Counted from the stretch's first letter, positions 26,803-60,389 are shown. The stretch: DNA of 64,000 nucleotides from an uncultured Chloroflexia bacterium (GCA_963838285.1 CAWIQP010000005.1:2075-66074), one strand, 5' to 3'. Numbers and translations are program-made. The notes: generated from the letters alone by a model not told the origin.

Positions 26803-27363
26803 TCAGCCCTTGGCGGCCGCCCGCTCCAGGGCCAGCTGCTGCAGGGCCAGGATCGACATCGCGTCGGCGATCTCGCCGCGGCCGATCATCGCCATCACTT
26901 CGTCGAACGGGACCCAGCGCATCTGGAGCTGCTCCGTTCCCTCGGGCGAGGCCGGGCCCGCCTCCAGCTCCGTGGCCGCGAACAGGATCGTGACTTCGTC
27001 CGTGACCGAGTTGGACAGCTCGGCTCGGCAAAGCTCGCGCCACTTCCCGCCGTTGTAGCCCGTTTCCTCGACCAGCTCGCGTCGGGCCGCCGCCTCCGGC
27101 GACTCGTCGAAGTCGCCGCCCCCTTCCGGAATCTCCCAGGAGTAGCGGTCCATCGTGTAGCGATACTGCCCGACGAGCAGCACGCGATCGTTCGCGTCGA
27201 GGGGCACGACGCCGATGGCCAGGTGCCGGAAGTGAACCACTCCGTAGATGCCGGGCTTCCCGTCCGGCCGGACGACGTCGTCGTGGAGTATTTCGATCCA
27301 GGGGTTCTCGTAGGCCACGCGCCGCGAGACGCGACGCCACGGGTTCAGCTCGCTCGCACTCAC
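26803..27363 (-). CDS. NUDIX hydrolase (ADP-ribose pyrophosphatase-like)
   Basis: QYRY...WEIPEGG..ESPEAAARRELVEETG Nudix box. Confidence 0.92.
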   Translation of the reverse strand: MSASELNPWRRVSRRVAYENPWIEILHDDVVRPDGKPGIYGVVHFRHLAIGVVPLDANDRVLLVGQYRYTMDRYSWEIPEGGGDFDESPEAAARRELVEETGYNGGKWRELCRAELSNSVTDEVTILFAATELEAGPASPEGTEQLQMRWVPFDEVMAMIGRGEIADAMSILALQQLALERAAAKG

Positions 27364-27487
27364 GTCGCAATCGTAGCGGGTCCGGGCGGGGAGCCGACGG
27401 GAGCACGGCGTAACGCGGCGACATCGCGGCGGGCGAGGCGGCCCCGAGCCCGCTGGAACCCGACGCCGGCCCGCGAGCAGCCCGGCG

Positions 27488-27513
27488 GGAACCCGACGCG
27501 AGCCGTGAGCGTC
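27488..27513 (+). promoter_or_regulatory. Putative ECF-sigma promoter GGAAC-N17-CGTC
   Basis: About 50 bp upstream of the SIMPL gene; a similar GCAAC-N16-CGTC lies at 208-232 before the protease. Confidence 0.45.
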
Positions 27514-27564
27514 GAAGGCCCCATGCGACGGCAACGACATCTGGACAGCCGGAAGGAGACAAAG

Positions 27565-28419
27565 ATGAACGCAAAGTCCTCGAACGCCAGGTTCGACCAG
27601 GATCCGCCGACGACTCCCGAAGGGTCGAGCCCGCGCTCGGACGGCAGCCGGTCGGTCGGGCGCCATGCCGGCCCGTTCTCCTACGGCCGGGCGATCGCGG
27701 TGGTCGCGGCCGCGTGCCTCCTCGTCGGATTGGTCGTCGGCCCGATCGTCAGCGGTCACCCCACTCTTGCGGCGGACCCTTCGGCCGCCCCGGAGCACAC
27801 CGTCACCGTCTCCGGCACGGGCGACGTCAGCGTGGCTCCGGACGTCGCCGACATCGTCGTCGGGGTCACGGTCCAGAAGTCCACGGTCGCCGCGGCCCAG
27901 TCCTCCGCGGCCACCTCCATGAATGCGGTGATAGCCGCCGTCGAGAAGGACGGCGTGGACGCCAAGGACATCGTCACGGTGGACCTCAGCCTGAGCCCCG
28001 TCTACGACTACAGCTCGGGCGGCTCCGTTCCCAAGCTCGTGGGTCAGCAGTTCACCAACACCGTCCAGGTCACCGTCCGGAACCTGAATTCGGTGGCCTC
28101 GGTGGTGGACGACGCGATCGCGGCCGGCGCCACGACCATCGGGGGCATCACGTTCCGGCTGAGCGATCCGAAGGCGGTCGAGGCCCAGGCTCGCCAGATG
28201 GCCATGACCGACGCTCGGAGCAAGGCCGACGCGCTCACGTCCGCGGCCGGCGTGTCGGTGAAGGGCGTCGCCACGATCGTCGAGACGACGAGCCAGCCCA
28301 CGCCCGTCTACTACTCCGGCGCCATGGATGCGGCGAAGGCGGAATCGGTTTCGACGCCGATCCAGACCGGCACCACCGATATCGTCGTCCAGGTAACCGT
28401 GAGCTACCTGATCGGCTGA
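27565..28419 (+). CDS. SIMPL domain (DUF541) protein
   Basis: TVTVSGTGDVSVAPDVA, AMTDARSKA, QVTVSY; AAGGAG RBS. Confidence 0.9.
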   Translation: MNAKSSNARFDQDPPTTPEGSSPRSDGSRSVGRHAGPFSYGRAIAVVAAACLLVGLVVGPIVSGHPTLAADPSAAPEHTVTVSGTGDVSVAPDVADIVVGVTVQKSTVAAAQSSAATSMNAVIAAVEKDGVDAKDIVTVDLSLSPVYDYSSGGSVPKLVGQQFTNTVQVTVRNLNSVASVVDDAIAAGATTIGGITFRLSDPKAVEAQARQMAMTDARSKADALTSAAGVSVKGVATIVETTSQPTPVYYSGAMDAAKAESVSTPIQTGTTDIVVQVTVSYLIG

Positions 28420-28597
28420 ACGCATGCCCTTCGGCCGAGCTCGTCGGCCCGTCGACCGGGCGCGGACGCTTCGGCTGAGCGCCCGACCAACCGAATAAAC
28501 GAACGCCCGGCGCCGTGCGTTTACGGCCGCGGGTCACATCCAGCCGGGACCAACGGCACGGTCCGGGCCATTCGGGGGGATACATACTCACCGGATC

Positions 28598-29044
28598 ATG
28601 CGACTCGATCTCACCAAGCGCAGCGACTACGCCATCCGGGCGATGCTGGCCCTGACCAAGGCCAAGGGCGGCCTTCTGAGCAGCCGGCGGATTGCCGAGG
28701 AGATGCATATCCCGCCCCGGTTCCTGCCTCAGATCATGGGCGACCTGACGCACGGCGGGCTGGTCAACGCCCATCCCGGACGAGCCGGCGGCTACGAGCT
28801 GGCGGAGAACCCGGACACGGTGACCCTTCTGCGCGTCATCGAAGCGGTCGAGGGCGATCAGCACCGCCAGGTGTGCGTTCTCCGCGGAACGCCCTGCGGC
28901 CTGGACGGCGAATGCGGCGTCCACGACATCTTCTTCGCGGCCGAGGGAGCGCTGCTCGACCGGCTGAAGGCGGCCACGCTCGGGGGCGTCATCGCCACGG
29001 CCGAGAAGGCGGAGTTGGAGAAAGCCGCCGCGGCCGCCCGCTAG
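28598..29044 (+). CDS. Rrf2 family transcriptional regulator (Fe-S-binding type)
   Basis: DYAIRAM, GRAGGYELA, three Cys in CVLRGTPCGLDGECGVH. Confidence 0.92.
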   Translation: MRLDLTKRSDYAIRAMLALTKAKGGLLSSRRIAEEMHIPPRFLPQIMGDLTHGGLVNAHPGRAGGYELAENPDTVTLLRVIEAVEGDQHRQVCVLRGTPCGLDGECGVHDIFFAAEGALLDRLKAATLGGVIATAEKAELEKAAAAAR

Positions 29045-29119
29045 ATCCCCGCGGGCTCGCCGCGAGCCCGGCCTTCCGTCCCGGTACCCGTTCGCAGAAC
29101 TCGTTTGCGCCCGCGCGCC

Positions 29120-29713
29120 CTAGGAGCCTGCGCGCGCGGGCCGGTTCCGAGCCTCCCACTCCTCGGCGAGGATGCTCATGTGTATCTCGTCCCAGAATCG
29201 GCCGTCCCGGAAGATGGCTTCCCGGGCCCGACCCTCGACGACGAAGCCGCATTTCTCGTACGAGCGGATCGCTCGCGGGTTGAACTCGAAGACCGTCAGC
29301 GCAACCCGATGAAGCGCCAGCCGGGCGAAGGCGTGGGCGACCATCAGTTCCGTTGCCTCTGTGCCGTAGCCCTTGCCCCAGGCGTCGCGCTCCCCGATGG
29401 TGATGTGGAAGAGCGTCGACCCGTTGTCGCCGTCGACCTGGCTGAACGCGCACGTGCCGATCAGTCGATCCGTGTCGCGGACGTGGATGGCCATGGCGAG
29501 GAAGTCGGATCCCATGATCCGCGTGTAGAAGAATCGCTGGACCTCGTCGGTCGATAGCGGGGCCTGCTGATAGCGCGTCAGGCGGGCAACCTCGGGGTCC
29601 GCGTACCAGCGCTGGAATGCGCGCAGGTTGTCCGGCCGGTGACGGCGCAGGACGATCAATCGGCCCAGGATCGCCTCCGGGCGCCACGAATCGCGATCAG
29701 GCGCCGCGGCCAT
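29120..29713 (-). CDS. GNAT N-acetyltransferase (RimJ/RimL-like)
   Basis: WGKGYGTEA, NPRAIRSYEKCGF. Confidence 0.9.
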   Translation of the reverse strand: MAAAPDRDSWRPEAILGRLIVLRRHRPDNLRAFQRWYADPEVARLTRYQQAPLSTDEVQRFFYTRIMGSDFLAMAIHVRDTDRLIGTCAFSQVDGDNGSTLFHITIGERDAWGKGYGTEATELMVAHAFARLALHRVALTVFEFNPRAIRSYEKCGFVVEGRAREAIFRDGRFWDEIHMSILAEEWEARNRPARAGS

Positions 29714-29793
29714 CGCGGGCTCCAGTTCGCCAGGATGGATCGGGTAAGGCGCGCCGAGCGGGTTTCACGGGTCGAAGGTATACCATCGCGGCC

Positions 29794-31632
29794 ATGCGTG
29801 GCTGGAGCGAGTTGGCCGAACGCGTCGCCGGGACCACTCGCACCTCGGAGAAGACCTCGCTGCTCGCACGGTACCTGGCGTCCCTGCCGGCTCCCGAGCT
29901 GCGTGCCGCCGCCACGTTCCTGGCGGGACGGCCGTTCGCGGAGGCGGATCAACGGTCCGTGGGCCTGGGTTGGGCTGCCATCGCCGCCGCGGTCGGCCGC
30001 GTCGCGGGTGTGCCCGCGGGAGCGCTGGGCGAGGCCTACGACCGCTCTTCCGACCTGGGGCAGGCCGTGGCCGACGTGCTGGCCGGGCGCACGGACGTGC
30101 CGAACCCCGGCTTCTCCCCGAGCCTGCCCGAAGTGGTGGAGGCCTTCGCCGCCATCGAGGCCGCGCCGGGACCGGCCGCGAAAGGGGCCGTATTCGCCGA
30201 GCTGCTGGAGCGCTGCGACGCTCTGACGGCCAAGTACGTGGTCAAGGTCCTGACGGGTGAGCTGCGCATCGGCCTTCGGGAGGGGCTGCTGGAAGCGGCC
30301 ATCGCGGAAGCGTTCGAGCGGCCCCAGGCGGACGTGGGAATGGCCATGATGCTGACCGGCGACACGGGCGAGACCGCCGTCCTCGCCAAAGAGGGACGCC
30401 TGGACGAAGCTCGCCTCCGGCTCCTCCACCCTCTCAAGTTCATGCTCGCCACGCCGGCTGAGGACGCAGCCGACGTGCTGGCGCGCCTGGGCCCCACGGT
30501 CTGGGTCGAGGACAAGTACGACGGCATCCGCGCCCAGCTCCACCGCCGCGGGGCGGAGGTGAGGCTCTACAGCCGCGACCTGCACGACATCAGCGAGCAG
30601 TTTCCGGAGATCGTCGAAGCGGCTCGGCCGCTGGATTGGGACGGCATTCTTGACGGCGAGATCCTGGCCTACTCCGACGGCCGCGTGCTGCCGTTCCTTA
30701 CTCTGCAGGGGCGGCTCGGCCGGAAGGAACCCACGGCCGACGTCCAGACCGAGGTGCCGGTGGTCTACGTGGCCTTCGATCTGCTTGCAATCGGGCCGCG
30801 CTCGGATGGCTTCGAGGACTCGCGCAACGGCTACCACTCCGGCGACGGGCTCTCCGGCCACTTGGCCGGCGGGCCCTCCGGCCACCCGGCGGACGGGGAC
30901 TCGGGGCGCAACGGCGCCGCTCCCCCGGTGGTGCCGCTGCTGCGGACTCCGCTGGCCGAGCGCCGTGGGCGCCTCGAGGCGTTGGGCCTGCGGCTGGTGG
31001 CCGAGGGTGGCCGGTTCGCGCTGTCCCACCTGGTTACCGTCGATTCGACCGAGTCCATCGATCGCGTCTTCGGCGAGGCCCGCGCCCGGCGGAACGAGGG
31101 CCTGATGGCCAAGGATCCCCAGAGCGGCTATTCGCCCGGCCGCCGGGGTCTCGGCTGGCTCAAGATGAAGCGCGCCCTGGCGACCCTGGACTGTGTCGTC
31201 GTGGGCGTCGAAGCCGGCCACGGCAAACGGCACGGCGTTCTGTCGGACTACACGTTCGCCGTTCGCGACGAGTCGGCCGATCGCCTGGTCACGATCGGCA
31301 AGGCCTACACCGGCCTGACCGACGCGGAGATCGCCGAGATGACCCGCTGGTTCGAGGACCACACCGTCCGCCGGCAAGGCCGGTTCAGGCAGGTCGAGCC
31401 GCTCGTCGTCGTCGAGGTGGCCTTCGACGTCATCCAGCGCTCGAACCGACACCAGTCGGGCTACTCGCTGCGCTTCCCGCGCATCGTCCGGCTCCGGCCC
31501 GACAAGACGCCGATCGAGATCGACACGCTGGCGAACGTCGAGCGGCTCCACCGCGAGCTGCAGCAGGGCTCCGAGTATCTGGTCACGGCCGAGGTCAGGC
31601 AGTCGGAGATGGCGCCGATCGAGCCCGTTTGA
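29794..31632 (+). CDS. ATP-dependent DNA ligase (LigB-like)
   Basis: EDKYDG, LDGEI, FDLL, EGLMAK, WLKMK, SLRFPRI. Confidence 0.93.
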   Translation: MRGWSELAERVAGTTRTSEKTSLLARYLASLPAPELRAAATFLAGRPFAEADQRSVGLGWAAIAAAVGRVAGVPAGALGEAYDRSSDLGQAVADVLAGRTDVPNPGFSPSLPEVVEAFAAIEAAPGPAAKGAVFAELLERCDALTAKYVVKVLTGELRIGLREGLLEAAIAEAFERPQADVGMAMMLTGDTGETAVLAKEGRLDEARLRLLHPLKFMLATPAEDAADVLARLGPTVWVEDKYDGIRAQLHRRGAEVRLYSRDLHDISEQFPEIVEAARPLDWDGILDGEILAYSDGRVLPFLTLQGRLGRKEPTADVQTEVPVVYVAFDLLAIGPRSDGFEDSRNGYHSGDGLSGHLAGGPSGHPADGDSGRNGAAPPVVPLLRTPLAERRGRLEALGLRLVAEGGRFALSHLVTVDSTESIDRVFGEARARRNEGLMAKDPQSGYSPGRRGLGWLKMKRALATLDCVVVGVEAGHGKRHGVLSDYTFAVRDESADRLVTIGKAYTGLTDAEIAEMTRWFEDHTVRRQGRFRQVEPLVVVEVAFDVIQRSNRHQSGYSLRFPRIVRLRPDKTPIEIDTLANVERLHRELQQGSEYLVTAEVRQSEMAPIEPV

Positions 31633-31672
31633 GCCCCGTTCGGACCGTCGCCCCGCCGGTTATGCTGCGGCC

Positions 31673-32234
31673 ATGCTCGATTCGTTCAGTCCGGCTCAGC
31701 CGCTCCCGATCACGATTGGGACCGCCAATCTCATCGTCCAGGGCACTCTCCGCACCAGGCTCCGCCGCCTCTCCGACGTCCTCAACGAGCCCGATGCCGA
31801 GCACCTGGTGCTGTTCGACGCCACGTTCATGGAGCTGGGGTCGCGGCGGGTGATCGCCGGGTCGAGCGCGGCCCAGGTCCCGCTGGCGGACGTGCTGTTC
31901 GCCCACGCGGATGGACCGACCGAATCCGGCAAGGAGATGAGGCAGCCCAAGCAATCGATCCGGGCTGTCCTGCTCGCCCCGCCCTTCACCGTCGAGGGCC
32001 ACATCTATCTGGCCTACGAAGCCGAGCTGCATCATGGCCCTCGACGCCTTCGGCGGCCGGTTCGTGCCCGTCACGGATGCCCGCTACTGGGCCTACAGCG
32101 TCGCCGAATCGCCCAGCTACGTGGATCTGCTGCTGCTCAACCATGCCCGGACGCACGTCGCCGTTCCCGCCGGCGTGGAGTGGCACGTGGAGCCGCCGCA
32201 CGACTCGGGCTCGGGCGCCTCGAATCCCTGGTAG
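31673..32234 (+). CDS. Hypothetical two-repeat beta protein, frameshifted near 32030
   Basis: Coding-like frame 31673..~32030 continues in frame 32034..32234; -10 TATGCT 6 nt before ATG. Confidence 0.65.
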
Positions 32235-32353
32235 GGGACGGGCCGGTGCCAGCCGGCCACCACAGCTCCGACCGGCCACGACCCACCGCCGCGACCACGG
32301 CCGCGACCGTTTCTCGGCCGCCGCCGTCCCTCGGCCGCCGCTTCTCGCCTGGA

Positions 32354-33241
32354 TCAGCGCTCGACGGGGAGGTCGAGGCGGTTACCCCACTCCGCCCAGC
32401 CCGCGTCGTAAACGGCGATGTCGTCGTAGCCGATGAGCGCCAGGGCGAAGGCCAGCTTGCAGGCCCCGATGCCGGCCGAGTCGTAGCAGATCAGGCGCCG
32501 CCGCGGGACGACGCCCGCTCGACGCAGAAGTGCCCGTATCTCCTCGGCGCCGCGGAAGCGGCCCGTCCGGGGCTCCGTCGTGGCCGCGGCCGGAACGTTG
32601 AGCGCTCCGGGAATGTGACCCAGCCGGCGCGTGGTTCCGGCATGGCCGGCGAACTCGGACGGGGAGCGGGCGTCCAGCAGCTGGACCTGCGGTGAGTCGA
32701 GGAGCTGCTTGACGTCGCTGGCCGTCAGCCGCAACCGGGGCTCCAGCCGCGGCGTGAAGATGGTGGGCGGTCGCAGCTCCGCGGCCGACGAGAGCGGCTG
32801 GGCCAGGGCGCGCCAGCCGTCCAAACCGCCCATCAGGAGTCGGCCGGACTCGAAGCCGTAGACGCGGAGCGTCCACCACGCCCGCGCGGCGTACGAAAGC
32901 GCCGCGTCGTCGTACAGGATCCCCACCATGCCGTCGCCGAGGCCGGCCCGCTTCAATGTCTCGGTCACTCGCTGAGGGCCGGCCATGAACAGGACGTCGT
33001 CGTCTTCGTCCTGCTCGACCAGGTCCGTGCGCCAGTCCACGTACATGGCCCCGGGAATGTGCCCGGACGCGTAGAGGCGCCGACCCGAGCCGTCGGGCCG
33101 CCAGCGCAGGTCGAGCACACCGAAGCCGGGACGGCTCAGGTTCTCGGCCAGCCACTCGGGCGTGGCCAGCAGCTCCGGTCTGGCGTATCCGCTTACCTGG
33201 TATCCGCTCATCTGGTATCGGCTCAAGCGCTGTCCGGTCAT
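32354..33241 (-). CDS. Tandem-domain rhodanese/sulfurtransferase (SseA-like) lacking the canonical catalytic Cys
   Basis: GHIPGA twice, LLDARS..EF.G, YDAGWAEW; active-site loop reads ICYDSAGIGA. Confidence 0.88.
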   Translation of the reverse strand: MTGQRLSRYQMSGYQVSGYARPELLATPEWLAENLSRPGFGVLDLRWRPDGSGRRLYASGHIPGAMYVDWRTDLVEQDEDDDVLFMAGPQRVTETLKRAGLGDGMVGILYDDAALSYAARAWWTLRVYGFESGRLLMGGLDGWRALAQPLSSAAELRPPTIFTPRLEPRLRLTASDVKQLLDSPQVQLLDARSPSEFAGHAGTTRRLGHIPGALNVPAAATTEPRTGRFRGAEEIRALLRRAGVVPRRRLICYDSAGIGACKLAFALALIGYDDIAVYDAGWAEWGNRLDLPVER

Positions 33242-33341
33242 CCAACCCCCCAGGCCGCGCTCGCCGCAGATCGCCTCGATGAAGATGCAGACGGGGAACC
33301 GCCGATGTAGGTCCGCGCAGCCGCCGCCTATCATACGAACC

Positions 33342-34586
33342 GTGGTGACGCCGTTTCTCCCCGACGACCAGAAGATCCCGGCCCTCCGTGAGGCGCTTCC
33401 GTCGACGGCCGCGGGCATCTACTTCAATACGGGCACGGCCGGGCCGCTCCCCAGGGAGACGGCCCATGCCATGGCCGAGGCCGAGGCCTGGGAGCTGCGC
33501 ACCGGCCGGGCCGACGTCCACCACTACGAGGACTCGCTCGAACGCATGGCCGAGGCGCGAGCCGCGATCGCCGCGGTCGTTGGCACGGACCCGAGCCACG
33601 TCGCCCTGACTCACGCCACGACCGACGGAATGAACGTGGCGGCCTGGGCGGTCGACTGGAAGCCCGGCGACCGGGTCGTGACTACGAGCCTCGAGCATGC
33701 CGGCGGACTGGGCCCGCTCTGGGCGCTGCGCGAGCGCGGCGGCGTGGAGCTGGTCATCGCCGACGTGGGCACGGGCGGCGATGCGGCCGCCATCCTGGAG
33801 ACGATGGACCGCGCCGTCGTCCCGGGGACGCGACTCGTGGCGCTTTCGCACGTCACCTGGGCTACCGGTGCTCGCCTGCCGATACGCGAGATCGCGGAGC
33901 TGGCCCACTCACGAGGCGCGCTCGTCGCCGTAGACGGCGCCCAATCGGTCGGGGCCATCCCGGTCTCGGTCGAGGATCTGGGCGTCGACTTCTACGCCGT
34001 GCCCGGCCAGAAGTGGCTGCTGGGGCCCGAAGGCATCGGCGCGGTTTACTGCGCCCCTTCGGTGCTGGATCGGCCGCGCACCACGTTCACCGGCTACTGG
34101 AGCTTCGAATCGATCGACCTGGCGGCGAAGGGCGACCTCTGGCCCGATGCCCGACGGTTCGAAGGCTCGGGCTTCCACGGGCCGTCGGTTCTCGGCCTGG
34201 CTCGAAGCGCGGCCTGGCTGTCGATGTACGTCGGGCTCGGCTGGATCCACGAGCGCATCGCCCGAATGGCCGGCGAGGCGGCTTCCATGCTGGCCGAAGT
34301 GCCCGGCGTCGAAGTGCTGACTCCGCGCGACAACATGGCCGGACTGGTCACGTTCAGGATCGCGGGCTGGAAGTCCTCCGCGGCCCTGAAGGAGCTGTCG
34401 CAGCGGACGCTCTGCATCGCCCGCACCATCCCGCCGCTCGACGCCATCCGCATCAGCGTCGGCTTCTTCAACACCGACGGCGAGCTGCGCCGCTTCCGCG
34501 ACGGCGTGGCCCTGGTGGCGGAGCACACGCCCGAGACGATCCCGCACCGCCCGCGGATCGAGGTCCTGCGCGGCGGCGTGGACTGA
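33342..34586 (+). CDS. Class V PLP-dependent enzyme (cysteine/cystine C-S lyase-like)
   Basis: YFNTGTAGP, EH, SHVTWATG, DGAQSVG, GQKWLLGPEG, IRISVGFFN. Confidence 0.88.
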   Translation: MVTPFLPDDQKIPALREALPSTAAGIYFNTGTAGPLPRETAHAMAEAEAWELRTGRADVHHYEDSLERMAEARAAIAAVVGTDPSHVALTHATTDGMNVAAWAVDWKPGDRVVTTSLEHAGGLGPLWALRERGGVELVIADVGTGGDAAAILETMDRAVVPGTRLVALSHVTWATGARLPIREIAELAHSRGALVAVDGAQSVGAIPVSVEDLGVDFYAVPGQKWLLGPEGIGAVYCAPSVLDRPRTTFTGYWSFESIDLAAKGDLWPDARRFEGSGFHGPSVLGLARSAAWLSMYVGLGWIHERIARMAGEAASMLAEVPGVEVLTPRDNMAGLVTFRIAGWKSSAALKELSQRTLCIARTIPPLDAIRISVGFFNTDGELRRFRDGVALVAEHTPETIPHRPRIEVLRGGVD

Positions 34587-34619
34587 GGCGAGTCGTTCGC
34601 CCGATCCTGGACCGGAGTC

Positions 34620-34740
34620 GGAGCCCGAGATCCGGGCTCACCCGAGCCCCACCCGGCCCGACCGGCCCTACGAGGGCCCCACCGGGGCCCGCCCGGGCCC
34701 TACCCGGCTCACCCGAGGCCCGGGCCCACCCGGGCTCAGC
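34620..34740. repeat. Degenerate ~10-bp-period GC tandem repeat (CCGGGCTCAC/CCGGGCCC)
   Basis: Read directly from the sequence. Confidence 0.7.
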
Positions 34741-34751
34741 CACGCTCGACT

Positions 34752-34968
34752 ATCTGGTCCAACTTGCCTGGAGTGGGAATTGGGCCGGCCGACCGTGCCT
34801 CTCGGTGGCTGGGGAGGCGGCTTCGCGCCGGGGCAGGATTAGCCGGCGCGCTCAGGACGGAGCCGTGGTCCCGGTTTGCGGGCGGTCGGGGCGCCGCGAG
34901 GCAGGCCGTCCCCGGTCGCCCTGCGTTGTGTCCGCCCCAACTTTCACGTGGGGCAAGTTTGGCCAGAT
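34752..34968. mobile_element. REPIN/MITE-like element, copy 2
   Basis: ATCTGGTCCAACTTGCCTGGAGTGGGAATTGGGCC ... GCCCCAACTTTCACGTGGGGCAAGTTTGGCCAGAT; same end consensus as 24367..24540. Confidence 0.6.
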
Positions 34969-35114
34969 GGCGGGGACGGTCGCCCGGATCGTGGCCCGCA
35001 TCGGGCCCGGAGCCAGCGGTGGCAAAAGCGAGGGTCGCCGCCGGTCGGGCCCGCTGTTGACCCGGGCACGAGGAGGGCGGTCGCTGGTGTGGTGTTGTAC
35101 GATCGTGGCCCGGC

Positions 35115-35190
35115 GGGGGAGTAGCTCAACGGTTAGAGCATGGCTCTTATACAGCCCCGGTTGGAGGTTCGAATCCTCCCTCCCCTACCA
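35115..35190 (+). tRNA. tRNA-Ile with UAU anticodon
   Basis: Cloverleaf: acceptor GGGGGAG/CTCCCCT, D-arm GCTC/GAGC, anticodon arm (T)GGCT-CTTATAC-AGCC(C), T-arm GGAGG-TTCGAAT-CCTCC, discriminator A, encoded CCA; anticodon TAT at 35148-35150; upstream -10 TACGAT. Confidence 0.92.
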
Positions 35191-35576
35191 GCGACGCTTC
35201 CGTCGTCCCATCCGTCCCTGCCCACGCCCCAGTGTCGAGCGATCGCCCAGGCGACTCCGCCCCCGGCGGCAGCGGCTGGCGAGCTGAGCCAGGAATCGAC
35301 GCGAACGGGTGGCGGAGGCCCGCCCGCCTACGACCTGCCCCTGGAGGTCGACCGCGTGACCCGAGTCGGGCACGTGACGGTCCAGCCGCTGGTCTCGCTG
35401 CCGTCCGCCGGCCTCTGGGTGGTCGAGGTTAGTCCGGCCGGTAACTGAGCGCCGTCGGCCGGCCCAGTGCGTTACGAGAAGTCATGGAGACGCCGCCGTC
35501 AAACGGCGGTTGACCGTGAAGCGGCGCGCCTTACGATGTTAGGACGCCACCACCGCGGACTGGAGGACCGTCACCG

Positions 35577-36332
35577 ATGAGCGCTCTCCCTCCCGACGAC
35601 GTTGCACCGCCTGACCCTGCCGCAAGCCCGGGAACTCCGGCCGGCGTGCCGGCCGCGAGTCCCGCCGCTCCGCCCCCCTGGGCCGTCCCCGCGGTGCCGC
35701 CGGCGCCTGCCTCGCCCGTCGCGCCGCAGCCCGGAACGTGGGGCCGGTCAGTCGCCCCGGCCTCCGCCCCCCGGACCCCGGCGTTCCAGTTCAACCGGGA
35801 ACGGTGGCTGCCGAGCATCGTGGTGGCATCGATCATCGCCTGCGTCGTGCTCGGCGGCATCGGACTTGACCAGGTCATCGCCGCCCCCAGTGCCGGCACC
35901 GTGACCGTAGGCGGCTCGGTGACCATAACCGCCGCGCCCGGCTGGGTCCTGGCCTCGCCGGCGGGCGACACCTCGAGCGGCATCGAGCTGGACAAGGCCG
36001 ACGCCGTCCTGACCGCCCAGGTCGTCTCGTCGGACTTCACCGGCGGCTCGGCCTCGATGCTGTCGGCCCAGGAGCAATCGCTCAGCAGCGACTCGTCCCA
36101 GATCAGCTACGGCGACGCGCACCAGGCCACGGTCAGCGGCCACGACACCACGTACGTCGCCTTCGAGGCCACCGTGGCCTCCGGCCAGCACGGCATCCTC
36201 GACGGCGAGCTGGTCTGCATGGTCGTCAGCGACAACGGGGTCGTCGTGGTGGCGGCCGCCCCGCAAGGCGATCTCGACCCCGTCGTCAACGACATAGCGG
36301 CAATGCTCAAGAGTGTGGGAGCCGGACAATGA
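35577..36332 (+). CDS. Hypothetical membrane-anchored protein
   Basis: RBS GGAGGA, Pro-rich N-terminus, one TM, extracytoplasmic domain; overlaps prsW start. Confidence 0.75.
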   Translation: MSALPPDDVAPPDPAASPGTPAGVPAASPAAPPPWAVPAVPPAPASPVAPQPGTWGRSVAPASAPRTPAFQFNRERWLPSIVVASIIACVVLGGIGLDQVIAAPSAGTVTVGGSVTITAAPGWVLASPAGDTSSGIELDKADAVLTAQVVSSDFTGGSASMLSAQEQSLSSDSSQISYGDAHQATVSGHDTTYVAFEATVASGQHGILDGELVCMVVSDNGVVVVAAAPQGDLDPVVNDIAAMLKSVGAGQ

Positions 36333-38159
36333 CGACCCCCGTTGGACCGGCTTCCGGCATGACGGGCCCCTTCGGCTCACCGACCCCCGTCGGCTTCTCG
36401 AATCCGCCCGCCTCGTCGCCGCCGGCGCCGCCGCGGTGGGGCAGGCAGGCATCCCTCATTCAGCCGACCCTGCCGGCCTTCTGGCTCTACTGCGCCATGC
36501 TGGCCATCGGCGGCTACTTCTTCGTGCAAGAGCAGTCGCTCATGAGCAATCTGACGAACGCCTACGTGCTGTCCTGGGCGCTCGTCCTCGTCTATGCGGT
36601 ACCGGTCGCTTTCGTCATCTATCGGCTCGATCTGTTCGAGCGCGAGCCGAAGCTGCTGCTGGCGGCCGCCGTGGTGTGGGGCGGCGTGATCGCCACCAGC
36701 CTGGCCGGCCATGCCAACGAGGCCTGGCTGTCGATCCTCGGCAAGGTCGTCTCGACCGACTTCGCTTCCCAGTGGGGCGCGGCTGTGGTGGGCCCCGGCG
36801 TCGAAGAGACGCTCAAGCTGATGGGCGTCGTCACCATCTTTCTGATCGCGTCGAGCGAGTTCGACGGGGTCATGGACGGCTTCGTCTACGGCGCCATGGT
36901 CGGCCTCGGCTTCACCGTCGTCGAGGACGTGTCGTACTTCATCAACGCGGTGGCGGCCGCGCCGGGCCTCGTCGATCAGTCCGGCCCGGTCTTCAACACG
37001 TTCCTGATCCGCGTGGTGGGCGGCGGCCTCTACGGTCACGTCCTGTTCACCGGCCTGACGGGGACCGGTTTCGCCTTCTTCGTCACGCAACGCGCCGCCG
37101 CGATGCCCAAGCGCCTGATCGGCGCGGGGCTATGCATCGCCGCGGGAGTGTCGGCCCACGTCGTCTGGAACTCGCCGTGGATGGACTCCGTCCTTCAAAC
37201 CACCGGCGGAGCCAATCCCAGCGTCATCCAGTGGATCCAATACGGGACCCTCAAGGGCCTGCCCTTCCTGATCCTGCTCGGGCTGCTCGTCCTGTTCGCC
37301 ACCCGCAGCGAAGAGGCCAACTACCGGGCCATCGTCGCCGGGGAGCCCGATCCTATGGTCGTCACCGACGACGAGATCCGATCGCTTCGGAGTCTCTGGG
37401 CCAGGCGGTCGGCCCGAACCGCGGCGGGTCGACTCCACGGCCCGGCCGGGGCGCAACTGATCGGACGGCTGCAGGCCGCCCAGATCGACTACGCGATGGT
37501 CCGCAGCGGCACCGACTCGCTGGCCGATCCGGCCCTGGACGCCCGGCGCCTGAAGATCCGGGGCATTCGCGCCGAGCTGGACGCGCTGCCCTTCCTGCCA
37601 CAGCCGATTCCGGGGGCCGTGCCGGGCGTTCCGGCTCAGCCGGCGCCTCAGGGTTGGGGGGCGGTCGCTCCGGGGCTGCCGGCCCAGGCTCCGTGGCCGA
37701 ATGCGCCGGCCGAGATCGCTACCGCACCATTGCCGACACCGGTGGAAGCGGCGCCCGTCGCGGTGGAGGCGGAACCCGAGCCGCGTCACGGCCGAACCCG
37801 AGCCCGCAGCCGCCGCCGCACCCGAAGCCGGGCCGGCGGCCGAACCCATCCCGACCGGACCCGTGCCCGCGGCCGCACCCGCGACCGATCCCGTGCCCGC
37901 GGCCGCACCCGAGCCCGAGCCCGTCTCGGCCGAGCCCGCCGTTGCTGGGGCGGCTCCCGCCTGGACGCCGACTCACGTCGTGCCCGCCGGCGGAATGGCG
38001 GCCTGGGGCGCGCCCGACCCGTCGCGCCCGCCCGTCGCCATGCTGTCCGAGCGCGTCGAGCTGATCGTCGTGGCGCAGGCGGGAGCCTGGGCTCAGGTCC
38101 GAGGCATCAACGGCTGGACTGGCTGGGTCGACGGCCGGCTGCTGGTCCCGCAGCCCTGA
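36329..38159 (+). CDS. PrsW family intramembrane metalloprotease with C-terminal SH3-like domain (frameshift near 37785)
   Basis: FEREP, VEETLK, GLGFTVVED, GH..F, H.VWN; C-terminus continues in the 37701..38159 frame (GAWAQVRGINGWTGWVDGRLL). Confidence 0.85.
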
Positions 38160-38321
38160 TCGCCCGCGGCTCCGTGCCGGCGGCCGTTCGAGCCGGGCGT
38201 TCGGCCGGCGCAAGACGTGCGGCCGGGCGTCGGTCCCGCCTTCGAGAGGTCCGTTTGCCCGATGGCGTCGGGGCCGAACGAGCGCGACAATCAACTAAGA
38301 CGCAGCGCAGAGGTGGGGACG

Positions 38322-38660
38322 TTGTCAGATACGAACGATGGAAGCGGCCGGGCGACGATCGTCCTTGAATTCGGAGGCCTGCACTGGCGCTCCTACACGG
38401 GCATCGCGCCGGCAACGCTGGTCGCGCTGGATAGCCAGGTCTACTTTCCCGGCGACGCCGGCAAGGGCTTTCGTTTCGAGTTGACCGCCTTGCCCGGTCC
38501 GCACGCGCTGACGGTCATGCTCGGGGGCAACTCGCGCACGGTCGCCATCGAGGTCGAAGCCGGCCAAACGTACGAGATCCCGCTCAAGTTCGGCGGTCGC
38601 TGGGGCGCCTTCGAGATCGAATTGCCCGAACCTCTAGCCGAGGGCAAGGCCGGCTCCTAG
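38322..38660 (+). CDS. Hypothetical beta-sandwich (PEGA-like) protein
   Basis: PGPHALTV...TVAIEVEAGQTYEI; start uncertain. Confidence 0.55.
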   Translation: MSDTNDGSGRATIVLEFGGLHWRSYTGIAPATLVALDSQVYFPGDAGKGFRFELTALPGPHALTVMLGGNSRTVAIEVEAGQTYEIPLKFGGRWGAFEIELPEPLAEGKAGS

Positions 38661-38701
38661 CCCTGCGGGCGCCGGCACGAAGCCGGCAATACGCCGGCTG
38701 T

Positions 38702-39958
38702 CTAGTGAGACCTGGCTTCGACAGCGACCGGCGACGACGCTGCCGACGAGGCGATGACGCGCATCGTCTCCCGCGCGATCATCCGCTCTTCGTTCGTCGG
38801 GATCAGCAGCACCCGCACGCGACTGGACGACGTCGCAAGGTCGACCGCCCGCCCTCGCTCGCTCGCGTTCTTCGTCTCGTCGAGCTCGACGCCGAGGAAC
38901 CCGAGGTCGCTGCAGGCGCGTTGTCGGACGACGGGGCTGTTCTCGCCGATGCCGGCCGTGAACACGATCGCGTCCAGGCCGCCCATTGCCGCCGCGTAGG
39001 CCCCGATGTACTTGCGGATGCGATAGCAGAACACCTCGAGGGCGAGCGTTGCCCTAAGGTGGCCCTTCGCAGCCGCCTCCTCGATGTCGCGCATGTCGCT
39101 CGAGAGGCCGGATATGCCCTGCAGGCCGCTCTCCTTGTTGATGATCCGATCGATGTCAGAAACGGACGCCTCGAGCCGGCGGGCCAGATACACCAGGATC
39201 GCGGGATCCAGGTCGCCCGAGCGCGTGCCCATGACCAGGCCTTCGGCCGGGGTGAGACCCATGCTCGTGTCGACGACCCGGCCGCCCCGGATGGCGGCGA
39301 TGCTGCAGCCGTTGCCGAGGTGACACGTCACGATCCGCGACGTATCCGCCGCGACGCCCTGCTTGGCGAGCATCTCCAGCGCGATCCCGGACACGTACTG
39401 GTGGGAGGTGCCGTGGAACCCGTAGCGTCGCACGCCGAAAGCGGTGTAGTAGTCGTACGGGAGCGCGTACATGTAGGCGAAGTCGGGGATGGTGGCGTGG
39501 AACGCCGTGTCGAAGACGGCCACCTGTGGAATGCCCGGCATCAGCCGCCGGCAGGCCCGAATGCCGTCCAGGTTGGGCGGGTTGTGGAGCGGCGCCAGCT
39601 GGCTGACCTTCTCGATCTCCGCCACCACGTCGTCGGTGATGAGCGTCGGCTGGACGAACTTCTCGCCCCCGTGGACCACGCGGTGCCCGACGGCCCCGAT
39701 CTCGTCCACGCGCTCCACGAGGCCCCTTTCCGGGTCGGTCAGAAGCGCGAACACGCGGCTCATCGCCTCGTCGTGGCAGTCCATCTCGGCGTCGAACGTG
39801 ACCTTGCCGTCGCGCTTCGTCTCCTGGACGATCCGGCCCTGTCGCTGAGCGACGCCGACGCACTCGGCGATCCCCTTCGCGACGACCTCCTCGGTCTCCG
39901 CGTCGATTAGCTGGTACTTGAGCGACGAGCTGCCGCTGTTGAGCACGAGGATCTTCAT
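38702..39958 (-). CDS. ackA: Acetate kinase
   Basis: LVLNSGSSSLK, GHRVVHGG, APLHN, RRYGFHGTSH, HLGNG, FTAGIGENS, PTNEE. Confidence 0.97.
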   Translation of the reverse strand: MKILVLNSGSSSLKYQLIDAETEEVVAKGIAECVGVAQRQGRIVQETKRDGKVTFDAEMDCHDEAMSRVFALLTDPERGLVERVDEIGAVGHRVVHGGEKFVQPTLITDDVVAEIEKVSQLAPLHNPPNLDGIRACRRLMPGIPQVAVFDTAFHATIPDFAYMYALPYDYYTAFGVRRYGFHGTSHQYVSGIALEMLAKQGVAADTSRIVTCHLGNGCSIAAIRGGRVVDTSMGLTPAEGLVMGTRSGDLDPAILVYLARRLEASVSDIDRIINKESGLQGISGLSSDMRDIEEAAAKGHLRATLALEVFCYRIRKYIGAYAAAMGGLDAIVFTAGIGENSPVVRQRACSDLGFLGVELDETKNASERGRAVDLATSSSRVRVLLIPTNEERMIARETMRVIASSAASSPVAVEARSH

Positions 39959-40054
39959 TCGGTCTTCTACCCGCCTGTCCTGGTACTGACCTTGACCGAT
40001 CCGGTGCGCGTCCCCAAGAGCCGTATCGCGGACCGGATCGCGTCCACGACGTCG

Positions 40055-41056
40055 CTAGTTCGATGCCTGCGCCGCCGTGATGGCAGCGACGTTCACGATG
40101 TCGAAAGCGTCGCACCCACGCGAGAGGTCGTTCACCGGGCTGCACAGGCCCTGGAGGACGGGGCCGAATGCCTTTGCCTTCGCGAGCCGCTCGGTGAGCT
40201 TGTACGCGATGTTCCCGGAGTTGAGATCCGGGAAGATGAGCACGTTCGCCTTTCCGGCCACCGGGCTGCAGGGCGCCTTCTTCTGGCCGATCCAGTCGAC
40301 CAGCGCGGCGTCTGCCTGGAGCTCGCCGTCGAGGGCGATGTCCGGGCGCCGCTCCTTCGCGATCCGCGTGGCCTCGACGACCTTGTCGACGAGCGGGTCC
40401 TTGGCGCTGCCCTTCGTCGAGAGCGAGAGCATCGCGACGCGCGGCTCGAACCCGAGGAGGTTCCGCATGGTGTTGGCGCTCTGGATCGCGATCTCGGCGA
40501 GCTGCTCGGCGTTGGGGTTGATGACCAGGCCGCAGTCGGCGTAGATGAAGGCTCCTTCCTCGCCGTACTCGCAATCCGGAACGATCATGAGGAAGAACGC
40601 GGAGACCAGGCCGCAGTCGGGAGCGGTGCCGAGGAGCTGGAGCGCCGGGCGAATTGTGTCGGCGGTGGAGTGGGTGGCTCCCGAGACCTGTCCGTCGGCC
40701 TCGCCTTCGTGCACCATCAGGCAGCCGTAGAACAGCGGATCGAGGACCAGCTGGGCCGCCTTTTCCTCCGTCATGCCCTTGTGGCGGCGGAGATCGAGCA
40801 GGGTGCTGGCGAACCGGTCGCGTTCGGGCGCGGTGGCGGGATCGACGATCCGGCAGCGGCTGATGTCCGCGCCGGCCTCCTTGGCGGCGGCTTCGATCTT
40901 CCAGAGCGGACTCACCAGGATGACTTCGGCCAGGCCCTCCCGGACGATCTGCTCGGCCGCGGTTACGGTCCGGACGTCGTCGGCCTCCGGCAGCACGACG
41001 GTCTTGTGCGCGGCGCGTGCGCGAGCGTAGACGGTTTCCATGACGTTGGACGTCAT
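40055..41056 (-). CDS. pta: Phosphate acetyltransferase (short form)
   Basis: VLPEADDVR, SGATHSTAD, LSLSTKGS, DGELQADAA, FPDLNSGNI.YK, VNDLSRG. Confidence 0.96.
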   Translation of the reverse strand: MTSNVMETVYARARAAHKTVVLPEADDVRTVTAAEQIVREGLAEVILVSPLWKIEAAAKEAGADISRCRIVDPATAPERDRFASTLLDLRRHKGMTEEKAAQLVLDPLFYGCLMVHEGEADGQVSGATHSTADTIRPALQLLGTAPDCGLVSAFFLMIVPDCEYGEEGAFIYADCGLVINPNAEQLAEIAIQSANTMRNLLGFEPRVAMLSLSTKGSAKDPLVDKVVEATRIAKERRPDIALDGELQADAALVDWIGQKKAPCSPVAGKANVLIFPDLNSGNIAYKLTERLAKAKAFGPVLQGLCSPVNDLSRGCDAFDIVNVAAITAAQASN

Positions 41057-41225
41057 CTTCAAGCCAGCTCCTGGTGCGTTGTGTCGGTTCGCGCTGTGGG
41101 CGCGGAGTCGGTCGACGCGGACCGCCGCCGACATGAGTCGGGGCGCTGCAGGGTTGTGCAGCAGTATTGACAGGAGCTTCCGCGATGCGGCTCCGCGACG
41201 AGTAGGGCCAATGGGCGCGCGATGC

Positions 41226-41376
41226 GGGCCGGAAGTCCCGTGCCGGATGGACGCAAGCACGTGCGAATCGCCCATGGACTAGGTCCCATGACCGGTTGTC
41301 GCCTGTCAACGCCCGGTCCGGCCGGTGTGCGCGGTCACCGTCCGAAGGGACCTGGGGTCATTGGGCCCATCGGCCG
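41226..41376. promoter_or_regulatory. Cluster of DosR-like palindromic boxes upstream of pta-ackA
   Basis: GGGCCGGAAGTCCC (41226), ATGGACTAGGTCCCAT (41274), GGGACCTGGGGTCA (41347), GGGCCCATCGGCCG (41363). Confidence 0.45.
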
Positions 41377-41550
41377 AGGCTTCCGGCGCGCCGGTCGAAA
41401 AGGTGCGGTCCGGGTGGTTTCGGGTGCCTTGCGAGTGGCCTAACAGCCACTCGGAGCCCGCGGCGGCATGAAATCGCCGCCTCGACGGTCCTGGGTGCCA
41501 TGACCGCCGTACCATTGCCCGCTCCCCCCTGCCGTCCCATCCTCCCCTAC

Positions 41551-43507
41551 ATGACGGGCGTTACTGTCCGGCGCTTCACCGGACTCCGTACCAGAATTGC
41601 CACGGCGTCGGGACTGGCTCTGCTTGTCCTGGTGCTCGCCGCGGCTTCCGCCGCGGGTGCCGTGACTGGCAGTCTCACCAATCCCTCCGTTTCGCCGAAC
41701 CCGGCGGTCGTCGGTGGCACAGTCACGTTCCAGGTGACCTACACGGACCCCGCGGGCGTAGCGCCGTACCGAGTCCGGGTCTACAGCGGCGACACGCGGC
41801 TGGTCACCTTCGCGCTGCCCGGGTCCGGCGACTGGGCCGGCGGCGTGACGCTCACGGCCACCACCTCGAGTCTGGCCGCCGGCTCGTATCCGATCGTCTT
41901 CCGTGCGTGGCAGGGAGATGCCAGCCATACCCAGCTTCCCGACCTCGCCGGTGGCACGCTGGTGGTCAACCCGGCTTCCAGCCCGAGCCCGAGTCACTCG
42001 GCCACCCCCAGCCCGACTCCGACCCACTCGCCCACGCCGACTCCGACTCCCACTCCGACTCCGACACCGACCGTGGAACCGACGCCGACGCCGGCTCCGG
42101 TCGCGACACCCGTCCCGACTCCGGCTCCGACCAGGGCCCCAACCCCCAAACCCACTCTCAAGCCCACGCCGAAGCCCACGCCTACGCCGGTGCCGGTGGC
42201 GGCCGCGACGACGGCACCGACGGCGGCCCCAGTCGTCACCGCAGCGCCGACCCACAACCCGACATCCGTCCCCACGTCGGGGAGCGGCAGTAGCTCGTCG
42301 CCGCGCGCCTCGCAGTCGACAAACGCGAACGGCCCGGTGGTGGCAGGAGGAGCGGGCTCCTCCGGCGGCGACCAGGCCGCGTCGACGCCCGGACCGGCCG
42401 GATCCCCCACCGGCGCGGGCCCGCTCTCCGATCCTTCGGTCAAGCACGGCGGCTCGGCCGCCTTCATAGGTCGCTTGACCAGCTACGTCGTCCCCGGCGT
42501 CTCCGGCGGAAGGGTGCCCGACAGCGTGCCGGCAGACCCGTTCGGCGGCCGGGACGAATCGCCCGCGGAGTTGTTCGTCGCGATGGCGCCGTCCGTAGCC
42601 ACCGGCGCCGCCGGAACCATGGCGTGGGCCGCTTTCGCGTTCTTCGGCAAGCGGCGCCGCGATGACGGCGACGAGCCGGAGGACCAGGCTCTCGCATGGG
42701 CGGCCGCGAGCAGCTACGAAGTCCAGGCCGCGCCGGGGCTCAGGGTGGTGGACGAGTCGATGCTGCCGCGCTGGCGCAGACCGTCGCTGCAACAGGTCCG
42801 CCGCAACGACCCGCTTCGCGCCGTCGCGGAAGAGCCGCGTCTTTCATTCGAGTCCGCCGGCGTTAGGCCGCTCGACAACTACGAACGCCGCCGCATCGGC
42901 TACCGGCTGGTTCGCCTCCTCGACTCGCCCGACGAGCTCCGGTCGCGGGAGATCGGCATCCTCGACAAGGGCGACGAGGTCCAGCTGCTGCAGAGCCATC
43001 AGGCGTTCTGGCTGGTCTTGTGCCCGGACGGCCGGCAGGGATGGGTTCATCGAATGACCCTGGCCGATCCTGCGAACGAGGCGCGGGGCGAGCCGGAGCC
43101 CGAACCGATGCCGCAGTACATGGACGACGACGACCCGCCCGAGGCCGTCGAATACCCGGTCGAGCCGGCCACCGACGGGCTGCTCGAGGCCTACATGAAG
43201 GCTCGCAGCGACATGCTGCGAACGATGGCCGCAGGCGGCGCCCGCCACGGCCGCTCCCGACGTGCCGAGCGCCCGCACGCCCCAGTCCGTCGCAGCCGAG
43301 GCGCCCGCCACGGCCGCCACGTCCACCGTTCCCGAGGTCGAGGTTCCCGTTACTTCGCCGCCGGCCGAGGAGACCGCTTCCGGCGGTGTTCCCGCCGCAG
43401 TACCAGCACGTGCTGGTGAGCGATATTCGGGACGAAAGAATGCGGGTACCCGTAAGGCCGCAAGCGCGTCCCGGCCTGGTACCAGATCACGTCGCCCTTC
43501 GCGGTGA
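41551..43507 (+). CDS. Exported protein: beta domain, PT-rich linker, TM, cytoplasmic SH3-like domain (probable frameshift near 43240)
   Basis: Signal peptide, (PT)n tract, AWAAFAFFGKRRR anchor, GDEVQLL...FWLVLCPDGRQGWVH; 3' end is 43419 or 43507. Confidence 0.75.
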
Positions 43508-59477: not shown

Positions 59478-60389
59478 GTGAGAGAGACGGAACGGCCGGC
59501 CGATGTGCGGCCGAGCGCGGCCGGTGCGCGGTCGAGCGCGGCGGATGCGCGGCCTAGCGAGGCCGGTGGGCCGCTGCCCGCGGTCGACGGGCCCCGGCGT
59601 GCGCGGGCGCTGACCATCGCGGGCTCCGACTCCGGCGGCGGGGCCGGCATCCAGGCCGATCTCAAGACGTTCATGGCCTTCGGCGTCTACGGCGCCTCCG
59701 CGATCACCGCGATCACGGCCCAGAACACGCTCGGCGTGCGGGCCATTCACGAGGTCCCACCGGATGTCGTGGCGGCCCAGATCGACGCCGTCCTCGAGGA
59801 CATCGGGGCGGATGCGGCGAAGACGGGGATGCTTTCGAGCTCGCCCATCATCGAGGCCGTGGCCGATCGGCTGCGCGCCCACTCGGTCGCGGCCCTGGTG
59901 GTGGATCCGGTGATGATCGCCAAGAGCGGCGACGCGCTGCTCCGCCCCGAGGCGGTGCGGGCCCTGCGCGAGCTGCTCCTGCCGATGGCGACGGTGGTCA
60001 CGCCCAACGCCCCCGAGGCTGCGGTCCTCTCCGGACTCGAGGTACGGGACCTGGCGTCGGCCCGGGAGGCGGCGCGCCGCATCCGCGACCTCGGACCGGA
60101 GATGGTAATCGTGAAGGGCGGCCACCTTGGCGGCGAGCGGTCCGACGACCTCGTGTTCGACGGGCGCTCCTTCGAGATCCTGTCGGGACCGCGAATCGGG
60201 ACGCCCCACACGCACGGCACCGGCTGCACGTTCTCGGCCGCGATTGCCGCCTGCCTCGCGCGCGGGCTGGAGCCGCTCGCGGCGGCGCGGGAGGCCCGCG
60301 CCTTTCTGCAGGGAGCGATCGAGCACGCCGAGCCGCTCGGCGCCGGCCACGGGCCGGTGAACCATTCCTGGAGGTCGTCCCATGGCTGA
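59478..60389 (+). CDS. thiD: Hydroxymethylpyrimidine/phosphomethylpyrimidine kinase
   Basis: LTIAGSDSGGGAGIQADLK, KTGML, VDPVM, KGGH, HGTGCT; start approximate. Confidence 0.95.
   Translation: MRETERPADVRPSAAGARSSAADARPSEAGGPLPAVDGPRRARALTIAGSDSGGGAGIQADLKTFMAFGVYGASAITAITAQNTLGVRAIHEVPPDVVAAQIDAVLEDIGADAAKTGMLSSSPIIEAVADRLRAHSVAALVVDPVMIAKSGDALLRPEAVRALRELLLPMATVVTPNAPEAAVLSGLEVRDLASAREAARRIRDLGPEMVIVKGGHLGGERSDDLVFDGRSFEILSGPRIGTPHTHGTGCTFSAAIAACLARGLEPLAAAREARAFLQGAIEHAEPLGAGHGPVNHSWRSSHG

Follow-up and report, generated by a model that had tools for sequence, protein, structure and literature searches.

The canonical bacterial means of reading AUA as isoleucine without reading AUG is the pair of TilS and tRNA-Ile2(CAU), in which the anticodon is converted to its lysidine form. 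TilS is reported to be conserved in ~98% of bacterial genomes, to be essential and to be a candidate antibiotic target (PMC12514573). Natural replacements of this pair have been described. Taniguchi et al. (2013; PMC3575796) report nine species in three clades without tilS and with a TAT tRNA-Ile gene, the replacement in Mycoplasma mobile was described by Silva et al., and tRNADB-CE holds TAT tRNA genes in 19 species (PMC4013482). Lactobacillus plantarum and L. casei are reported to carry an extra tRNA-Ile(TAT) while keeping tilS, a state that was proposed as an intermediate stage (PMC3575796). Our search of the literature on Chloroflexota, Limnocylindria, CPR and Patescibacteria, whose coverage left out subscription journals and supplements, found no report of tilS loss or of a UAU swap.

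Here we analyzed a 64,000-nt stretch of DNA from an uncultured Chloroflexia bacterium (hereafter the window), which carries a tRNA-Ile gene with the anticodon UAU. Like M. mobile, which is reported to lack both tilS and tRNA-Ile2(CAU) and to read AUA with a genome-encoded UAU tRNA (PMC3575796), the lineage of the window has the UAU gene, and neither component of the canonical pair, which the sister families keep, was found in its order. In both cases the UAU tRNA seems to escape the xm5U machinery, and in the present one no MnmG was found. The two differ in lifestyle and genome: M. mobile is parasitic, with an AT-rich genome of 0.78 Mb, and the present lineage is free-living, with a 3-Mb genome of 69% G+C. 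They also differ in that the type-1 isoleucyl-tRNA synthetase (IleRS) of M. mobile is reported to have exchanged Trp for Arg in the zinc-binding domain at its C-terminus (PMC3575796), an adaptation that does not apply to the type-2 enzyme found here. Bifidobacterium adolescentis and Neorickettsia sennetsu, which are reported to lack tilS and to combine tRNA-Ile(TAT) with a eukaryote-type IleRS (PMC3575796), have the architecture closest to that of the window's lineage; the present case differs from them in belonging to Chloroflexota, in extending over the many genera of an entire order, and in having its own tRNA signature (a G1-G5 acceptor and a pyrimidine at position 38). In contrast to the two lactobacilli, tilS has been lost here. 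In the suppressor of a tilS deletion in Bacillus subtilis (tRNA1-Ile G34->U34), a plain U34 is reported to replace TilS, with strong binding to AUA and weak binding to AUG (Köhrer et al., 2014; PMC3919564); that tRNA is a laboratory mutant of the major tRNA-Ile(GAU), whereas the one described here is natural and ancient, and sequences from the sister family f2 point to descent from Ile2. The mechanism is therefore already known, and what is new is an order of Chloroflexota that uses it.

The gene was called by ARAGORN as tRNA-Ile, anticodon tat, at 35115-35190 (+), and positions 35115-35187 scored 67.2 bits against Rfam RF00005 (E 1.9e-12), above the gathering score of 29. It is 76 nt long with CCA encoded, and the sequence and the ARAGORN drawing showed an acceptor stem GGGGGAG/CTCCCCT with a G1.U72 pair, followed by A73. 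The anticodon loop C32-U33-U34-A35-U36-A37-C38 (CTTATAC) lies at 35146-35152 (+), with the anticodon UAU at 35148-35150, position 34 at 35148 and position 38 at 35152, and the anticodon arm (35141-35157, +) contains a U27.C43 mismatch (35141/35157). The canonical cloverleaf with its UAU loop, A73, CCA, G1.U72, U27.C43 and C38, as described in the original prediction, was thus borne out in full. Read support for U34 was examined in four public runs, three of DNA and one metatranscriptome; where their contigs cover the tRNA, no alternative letter was seen at 35148, and hence no C. The sole variable place of the tRNA in these runs was 35130 in the D loop, which also varies among the relatives' species. 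The word shares of the public runs holding the stretch are all <=0.18, so we make no claim on habitat or abundance from them. The second of the two ARAGORN calls in the window, a 98-nt "tRNA-Asp(gtc)" at 59548-59645 (+) with 84.7% G+C and a poor cloverleaf, found no Rfam support at the gathering threshold and is probably a false positive. The window also contains a TPP riboswitch (RF00059; 59301-59408, +; 65.3 bits, gathering score 54.3).

The window's genome (G000; 3.10 Mb in 13 contigs, 69% G+C, 92% complete) was searched for tilS with the TilS N-terminal model TIGR02432, whose best match reached 22.5 bits (cut-off 93.6), and with PF01171, which reached 22.3 bits (cut-off 27); both models were positive in all bacterial control genomes. 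The weak PP-loop match was considered as a divergent TilS and rejected, as it belongs to the GMP synthase GuaA (NF000848, 777 bits). Because the assembly is 92% complete and also lacks some expected tRNAs (Gly-UCC and Gly-CCC), absence from this genome alone is weak evidence. The search was extended to the window's genus and the small-genome sister family f2, where tilS exceeded the cut-off in 0 of 41 genomes, and to 151 genomes drawn from the whole class, in which the window's order comprises the families f1 (that of the window) and f2, G000 included, and the remaining genomes belong to f3, f4 and f5. The results showed that tilS was over the cut-off in 0/51 genomes of the order, many of them 93-97% complete, vs. 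90/100 genomes of f3, f4 and f5, where three further partial matches scored 71-81 bits. The UAU tRNA pattern had the opposite distribution, being matched in 45/51 genomes of the order (f1 40/45, f2 5/6) and in 0/100 of the other families, and a reversed-pattern control gave 0 matches everywhere. Incompleteness or pattern mismatch may explain the six order genomes in which the pattern was not matched. Within the genus, the tRNA was present in 23 of the 24 other genomes at 91-100% identity, with the anticodon TAT in every copy; no copy found in the genus has CAU, and neither the genome nor the relatives showed tilS.

These two distributions, together with an empty tilS slot described below, strongly support the earlier proposal that this lineage exchanged TilS and tRNA-Ile2(CAU) for tRNA-Ile(UAU). 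We consider it very likely that the UAU tRNA is the sole AUA decoder, charged by a type-2 IleRS, and that it has replaced the canonical pair across the order. The replacement would have been a single event at the root of the window's order, after which tilS would have been deleted from a tRNA-Met-tilS-ftsH locus and the Ile2(CAU) gene would have disappeared.

Charging with isoleucine would be performed by an IleRS of the eukaryote/archaea-like type 2. The IleRS of the window's genome (L057:973-4326) has the domains tRNA-synt_1, Anticodon_1 and DUF5915 and no zinc-finger C-terminus, which makes it type 2. The type-2 marker was present in 196/201 genomes of the phylum, including lineages that keep tilS, as well as in 5/5 other tilS-less genomes and in 3/5 genomes with both systems. 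IleRS type was rejected as a correlate of the swap on account of the 196/201 count; the type-2 enzyme appears to be a permissive background, not a diagnostic feature, which may explain why the swap recurs in the phylum. Compared with the enzymes of tilS-bearing sister families (L060-L062), the IleRS of the order has two insertions, one of ~43 residues after WMDWN and one of ~17 residues in the catalytic core.

MnmG (TIGR00136) and Elp3 (TIGR01211) were each found in 0/5 class genomes (G000, G075, G026, G049, and G060), and MnmA was found in 5/5 of the same set. The class seems to be without xm5U34 chemistry altogether, and since MnmG and Elp3 were not found, xm5U34 modification is unlikely. 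By analogy with the M. mobile tRNA and the B. subtilis suppressor, U34 of the window's tRNA is probably unmodified, or only simply modified. Misreading of AUG would then be kept low by weak U34-G pairing and by competition from tRNA-Met, possibly with a contribution from the context of C32 and a pyrimidine at position 38.

The same swap could instead require a modified U34 for AUA/AUG discrimination, whether pseudouridine, as in the eukaryotic tRNA-Ile(UAU), 2-thiolation by MnmA, or an undescribed modification; we regard this as possible, though rather doubtful. Sequenced tRNAs are reported to be almost always modified at U34 (PMC3919564), and a haloarchaeal tRNA-Ile mutated to U34 is reported to become modified (PMC3919564; PMC3895270). 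However, U34 is reported to be unmodified in M. mobile and in the B. subtilis suppressor, the two bacterial examples for which experiments exist (PMC3575796; PMC3919564). The general presence of MnmA would favor a modified U34, as would the cysteine-desulfurase-like and rhodanese genes directly 5′ of the tRNA, a synteny that is kept in another genus (G075); against this, neither MnmG nor Elp3 was detected in the five genomes and the adjacency of the sulfur genes may be due to chance. MnmA substrates carry U35, not A35, which we count against 2-thiolation of tRNA-Ile(UAU). An account with U34 lacking the xm5 side chain, and probably unmodified, is thus preferred here.

The two sulfur genes are a two-domain rhodanese (3-mercaptopyruvate sulfurtransferase-like; 32354-33418, -) and a class-V aminotransferase (cysteine-desulfurase-like, below the NCBIfam cut-offs; 33162-34586, +), divergent and overlapping as listed. 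When the ORFs of the interval 27000-43000 were compared with other loci, the only match was to a locus from a second genus of the family; four Ile2(CAU) loci and the f2, f56 and f27 loci gave none. An origin of the UAU gene by an in-place C-to-T change of Ile2(CAU) was considered and set aside, as no shared synteny with the four Ile2(CAU) loci was available to show it.

To describe the sequence signature of the tRNA, 28 distinct UAU tRNAs from 14 genera of the window's family and from f2 were aligned. The cloverleaf fitted 98.1% of cells as paired, with changes on both sides in 10 of the 21 pairs and compensatory changes in three stems, and the covariation score was reached by 0/500 shuffles. 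Invariant positions included G1-G5 with C68-C71, the D stem, C32, U33, the anticodon UAU and A37, and the first pair was G1.U72 in 24/28 tRNAs and G-C in four. Position 38 was C or U in 27/28 and G in one, whereas it was A in the listed sister-family CAU tRNAs and in all listed UAU tRNAs of other Chloroflexota lineages. The U27.C43 mismatch, which was the sole site of unpaired cells, occurred in 11/28 tRNAs from three genera. With a normal pair at 27-43 in the other 17, the mismatch is no general requirement. The suggestion that the odd 27-43 and 38 positions may tune AUA/AUG discrimination accordingly divides: the pyrimidine at position 38 is a real order-wide signature, but the 27-43 mismatch is restricted to three genera. 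The combination C32/C38 is present in 3/50 tRNAs of the window's genome (Ile-UAU, Leu-UAA, and Asp-GUC), and it plausibly tunes a weak A/U-rich anticodon; nothing ties it specifically to AUG avoidance. A further and more speculative idea, which we think unlikely, is that the tRNA of the order itself discriminates AUA from AUG, with the invariant C32, the pyrimidine 38 and the remodelled G1-G5 acceptor serving either as the device or as the recognition site for an undescribed U34-modifying enzyme. If true, this would be AUA-only reading intrinsic to the tRNA in a fast-evolving, free-living, GC-rich lineage, unlike the ribosome-based solution proposed for M. mobile.

By overall identity, the UAU tRNAs of the window's family are nearest to a Met-type tRNA (74-81%), and the Ile2-type T arm is kept in the UAU tRNAs of some genera and of f2. 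The descent of the family's UAU tRNA is ambiguous by identity, and the f2 sequences point to the Ile2 lineage.

The use and meaning of AUA were examined in 1529 long GC3-rich ORFs of the window's genome, which contained 1230 ATA codons (1.97 per 1000; 4.6% of isoleucine codons), with at least one ATA in 765 of the 1529 ORFs. With this many ATA codons in use an AUA decoder is required, and the UAU tRNA is the sole candidate. In the window, the original prediction had pointed to ATA codons at 4662, 61923 and 61932. The first is in frame in a long GC3-rich ORF; the other two are ATA trinucleotides only, their ORF lying outside the filtered set, and ~50 further in-frame ATA codons occur in long ORFs of the window. 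ATA is nearly as frequent as ATT in the genome (1.97 vs. 2.54 per 1000). It is also ~2x commoner than in sister families of similar G+C (1.8-2.0 vs. 0.55-0.95 per 1000), which is a hint only, as the sister samples hold 4-9 ATA codons each.

If the UAU tRNA read both AUA and AUG appreciably, either an ambiguous Ile/Met at AUG would be tolerated or the meaning of AUA would have changed. In favor of such a situation, a plain U34 can pair with G, and the M. mobile tRNA is reported to bind AUG on E. coli ribosomes (PMC3575796; PMC3919564). The alignments argue otherwise: at 21 ATA sites in 14 genes compared with tilS-bearing relatives (41 non-independent cells), the aligned residues were V in 12, L in 11, I in 10, A in four, K in three and M in only one, and all 10 I cells were encoded by ATC. 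At ATG sites, M was found in 112/387 cells of the same kind of comparison. A wider comparison of ATA sites was similar, with ATA sites aligning with I, V and L as ATC sites do. On these few sites, AUA behaves as an isoleucine codon. In addition, an elongator tRNA-Met is retained in 45/45 genomes of the family, and the B. subtilis suppressor is reported to misread AUG only ~1 in 1000 times (PMC3919564). Appreciable dual reading is thus very improbable.

Still less credible is that TilS and tRNA-Ile2(CAU) are present in the order and were missed through gaps or extreme divergence, the UAU tRNA being redundant as in L. plantarum and L. casei. The window's assembly is indeed incomplete, and five other Chloroflexota genomes (G274, G479, G416, G332, and G180) have both tilS and a UAU tRNA, a state like the proposed intermediate. 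However, the same model that found tilS in 90/100 sister-family genomes and in all 10 controls found it in 0/51 genomes of the order, and the genomic locus gives a direct comparison. At 6/6 sister-family loci examined (L037, L039, L041, L043, L045, and L055), a CAU tRNA with a GGC... acceptor lies directly 5′ of tilS and in the same orientation. G049 has, in succession, the GGC-type CAU tRNA, TilS (PF01171, 159.8 bits) and an FtsH-like ORF, residues 116-194 of which share 78% identity with the N-terminal part of FtsH of the window's genome. In the window's genome, tRNA-Met (C4:249313-249387) is followed by a gap of ~330 nt and then by ftsH, with Peptidase_M41, AAA and FtsH_ext domains, so that tRNA-Met and ftsH adjoin without tilS (G000:C4:247077-249387). 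No tilS remnant was detected at E<=1e-4 in the 11-kb region searched around this tRNA-Met. The contig is unbroken here, so tilS has been lost from a conserved position and an assembly gap is excluded as the cause of its absence.

The CAU tRNA complement bears on the same question. ARAGORN identified 50 tRNAs in the window's genome, including one Ile(GAU), one Ile(UAU) and only two with the anticodon CAU, one an initiator (C1 opposite A72, GGG/CCC anticodon stem) and the other of elongator type. Exactly one elongator-type CAU tRNA, always with a GGC... acceptor, was present in 45/45 genomes of the family, with no Ile2-type CAU tRNA in any of them. In f2, two CAU tRNA patterns gave 0/6 and 0/5 matches. 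In the sister family f4, the CAU pattern was matched at least two times in 47/50 genomes, and the second CAU tRNA of the sister families has a GGGCCC... acceptor, is sited away from tilS, and is of a type not seen in the order. In our assignment, which is a weak point of the argument, the GGGCCC type represents Ile2 and the GGC type the elongator tRNA-Met. The GGC type is assigned to methionine because the single remaining elongator CAU tRNA must serve this amino acid, and the GGGCCC type to Ile2 because the UAU tRNAs of f2 and of three other Chloroflexota lineages are closest to it (72-79% identity). The latter assignment also uses C4-G69 and C5-G68, which we take to be E. coli TilS determinants. 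On this isotype call, which rests partly on those presumed determinants, a tRNA-Ile2(CAU) gene was not found in the order.

Within f1, the single elongator CAU tRNA occurs in three sequence kinds, even within one genus, with the anticodon arms GGGGA.../...GCCCT, AGCGG.../...CGCT and GGCGA.../...CGCC. The differing kinds suggest replacement or differential loss of tRNA-Met genes.

The expression of the UAU gene was assessed from a public RNA library and from the upstream sequence. The contigs of the RNA library cover the tRNA at a summed depth of 134-657 and its immediate flanks at a depth of 0, unlike the DNA runs, in which the flanks are covered too. Cover limited to the tRNA is consistent with transcription, of which contigs are no proof. 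Upstream, an alignment of family loci revealed a conserved box TGTACGATC at 35096-35104 (+), 11 nt 5′ of the tRNA, with the -10-like hexamer TACGAT at 35098-35103. As TGTACG(A/C)TC, the box was invariant in 8/8 aligned family loci, with no alignable sequence in the remainder of the flank. A sigma-70 consensus scan upstream of the tRNA found no full promoter and no -35 element at a spacing of 16-18 nt. The -10 (TACGAT) that had been proposed for the gene is thus present and lies in a conserved box, but it lacks a -35 partner, and the box is probably a promoter element. The same TACGAT hexamer occurs in a promoter-like site, TTGACC-16 nt-TACGAT, at 35510-35537 (+), 5′ of the ORF 35577-36332, which has no family match. 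A reading of the UAU gene as a silent relic, or as a foreign tRNA of recent arrival, is favored only by the missing -35 element and has a negligible probability, given the conservation of the gene over 14 genera and a sister family, the compensatory changes in three of its stems, the conserved upstream box, the synteny kept within the family, RNA-library contigs that cover exactly the tRNA, and its position as the only candidate decoder for 1230 ATA codons.

The distribution of the two systems was then considered over the phylum. In a draw of 401 Chloroflexota genomes, tilS passed the cut-off in 358. Outside the class, 12 genomes matched the UAU pattern, seven of which were without tilS (4/4 of the family f56, 2/3 of the family f27, and G529). 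Family draws gave tilS in 0/41 and the UAU tRNA in 34/41 genomes of f56, and tilS in 0/8 and the UAU tRNA in 7/8 genomes of f27. In both families, the UAU tRNAs keep an Ile2-like acceptor stem and A38. As read from these genomes, TilS has been replaced by a UAU tRNA at least three times in the phylum. Some counts in this study include unpublished genomes (G101, G123, G128, G137, G143, G154, G214, G324, G341, G408, G471, G541, G551, and G562), and no claim is made on these alone.

The tRNA set of the class has another peculiarity. Bacteria are reported to normally have tRNA-Arg(ACG) and TadA, without a GCG tRNA (PMC8007984). In the window's genome, tRNA-Arg(GCG) is present (G000:C4:674949-675024) and tRNA-Arg(ACG) is not, and the same holds for G075, G026 and G049; G060, of f3, has ACG. 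The TadA model NF008113 remained below its cut-off in all five genomes, with 104-141 bits and no match in G026. A tRNA-Arg(GCG) without ACG may represent a second decoding swap in the class.

The published natural exceptions that we found are few, and most of these species are parasites or symbionts with reduced genomes. Described here is a whole order of free-living soil and peat bacteria, with 3-Mb genomes of 69% G+C, without TilS, plus two further Chloroflexota families. The order offers concrete tRNA variants for testing, namely the altered acceptor stem and, at position 38, a pyrimidine vs. A. With the tilS-bearing sister families showing the before-and-after state at one locus, it constitutes a clean natural experiment on why bacteria rarely use U34 for AUA.
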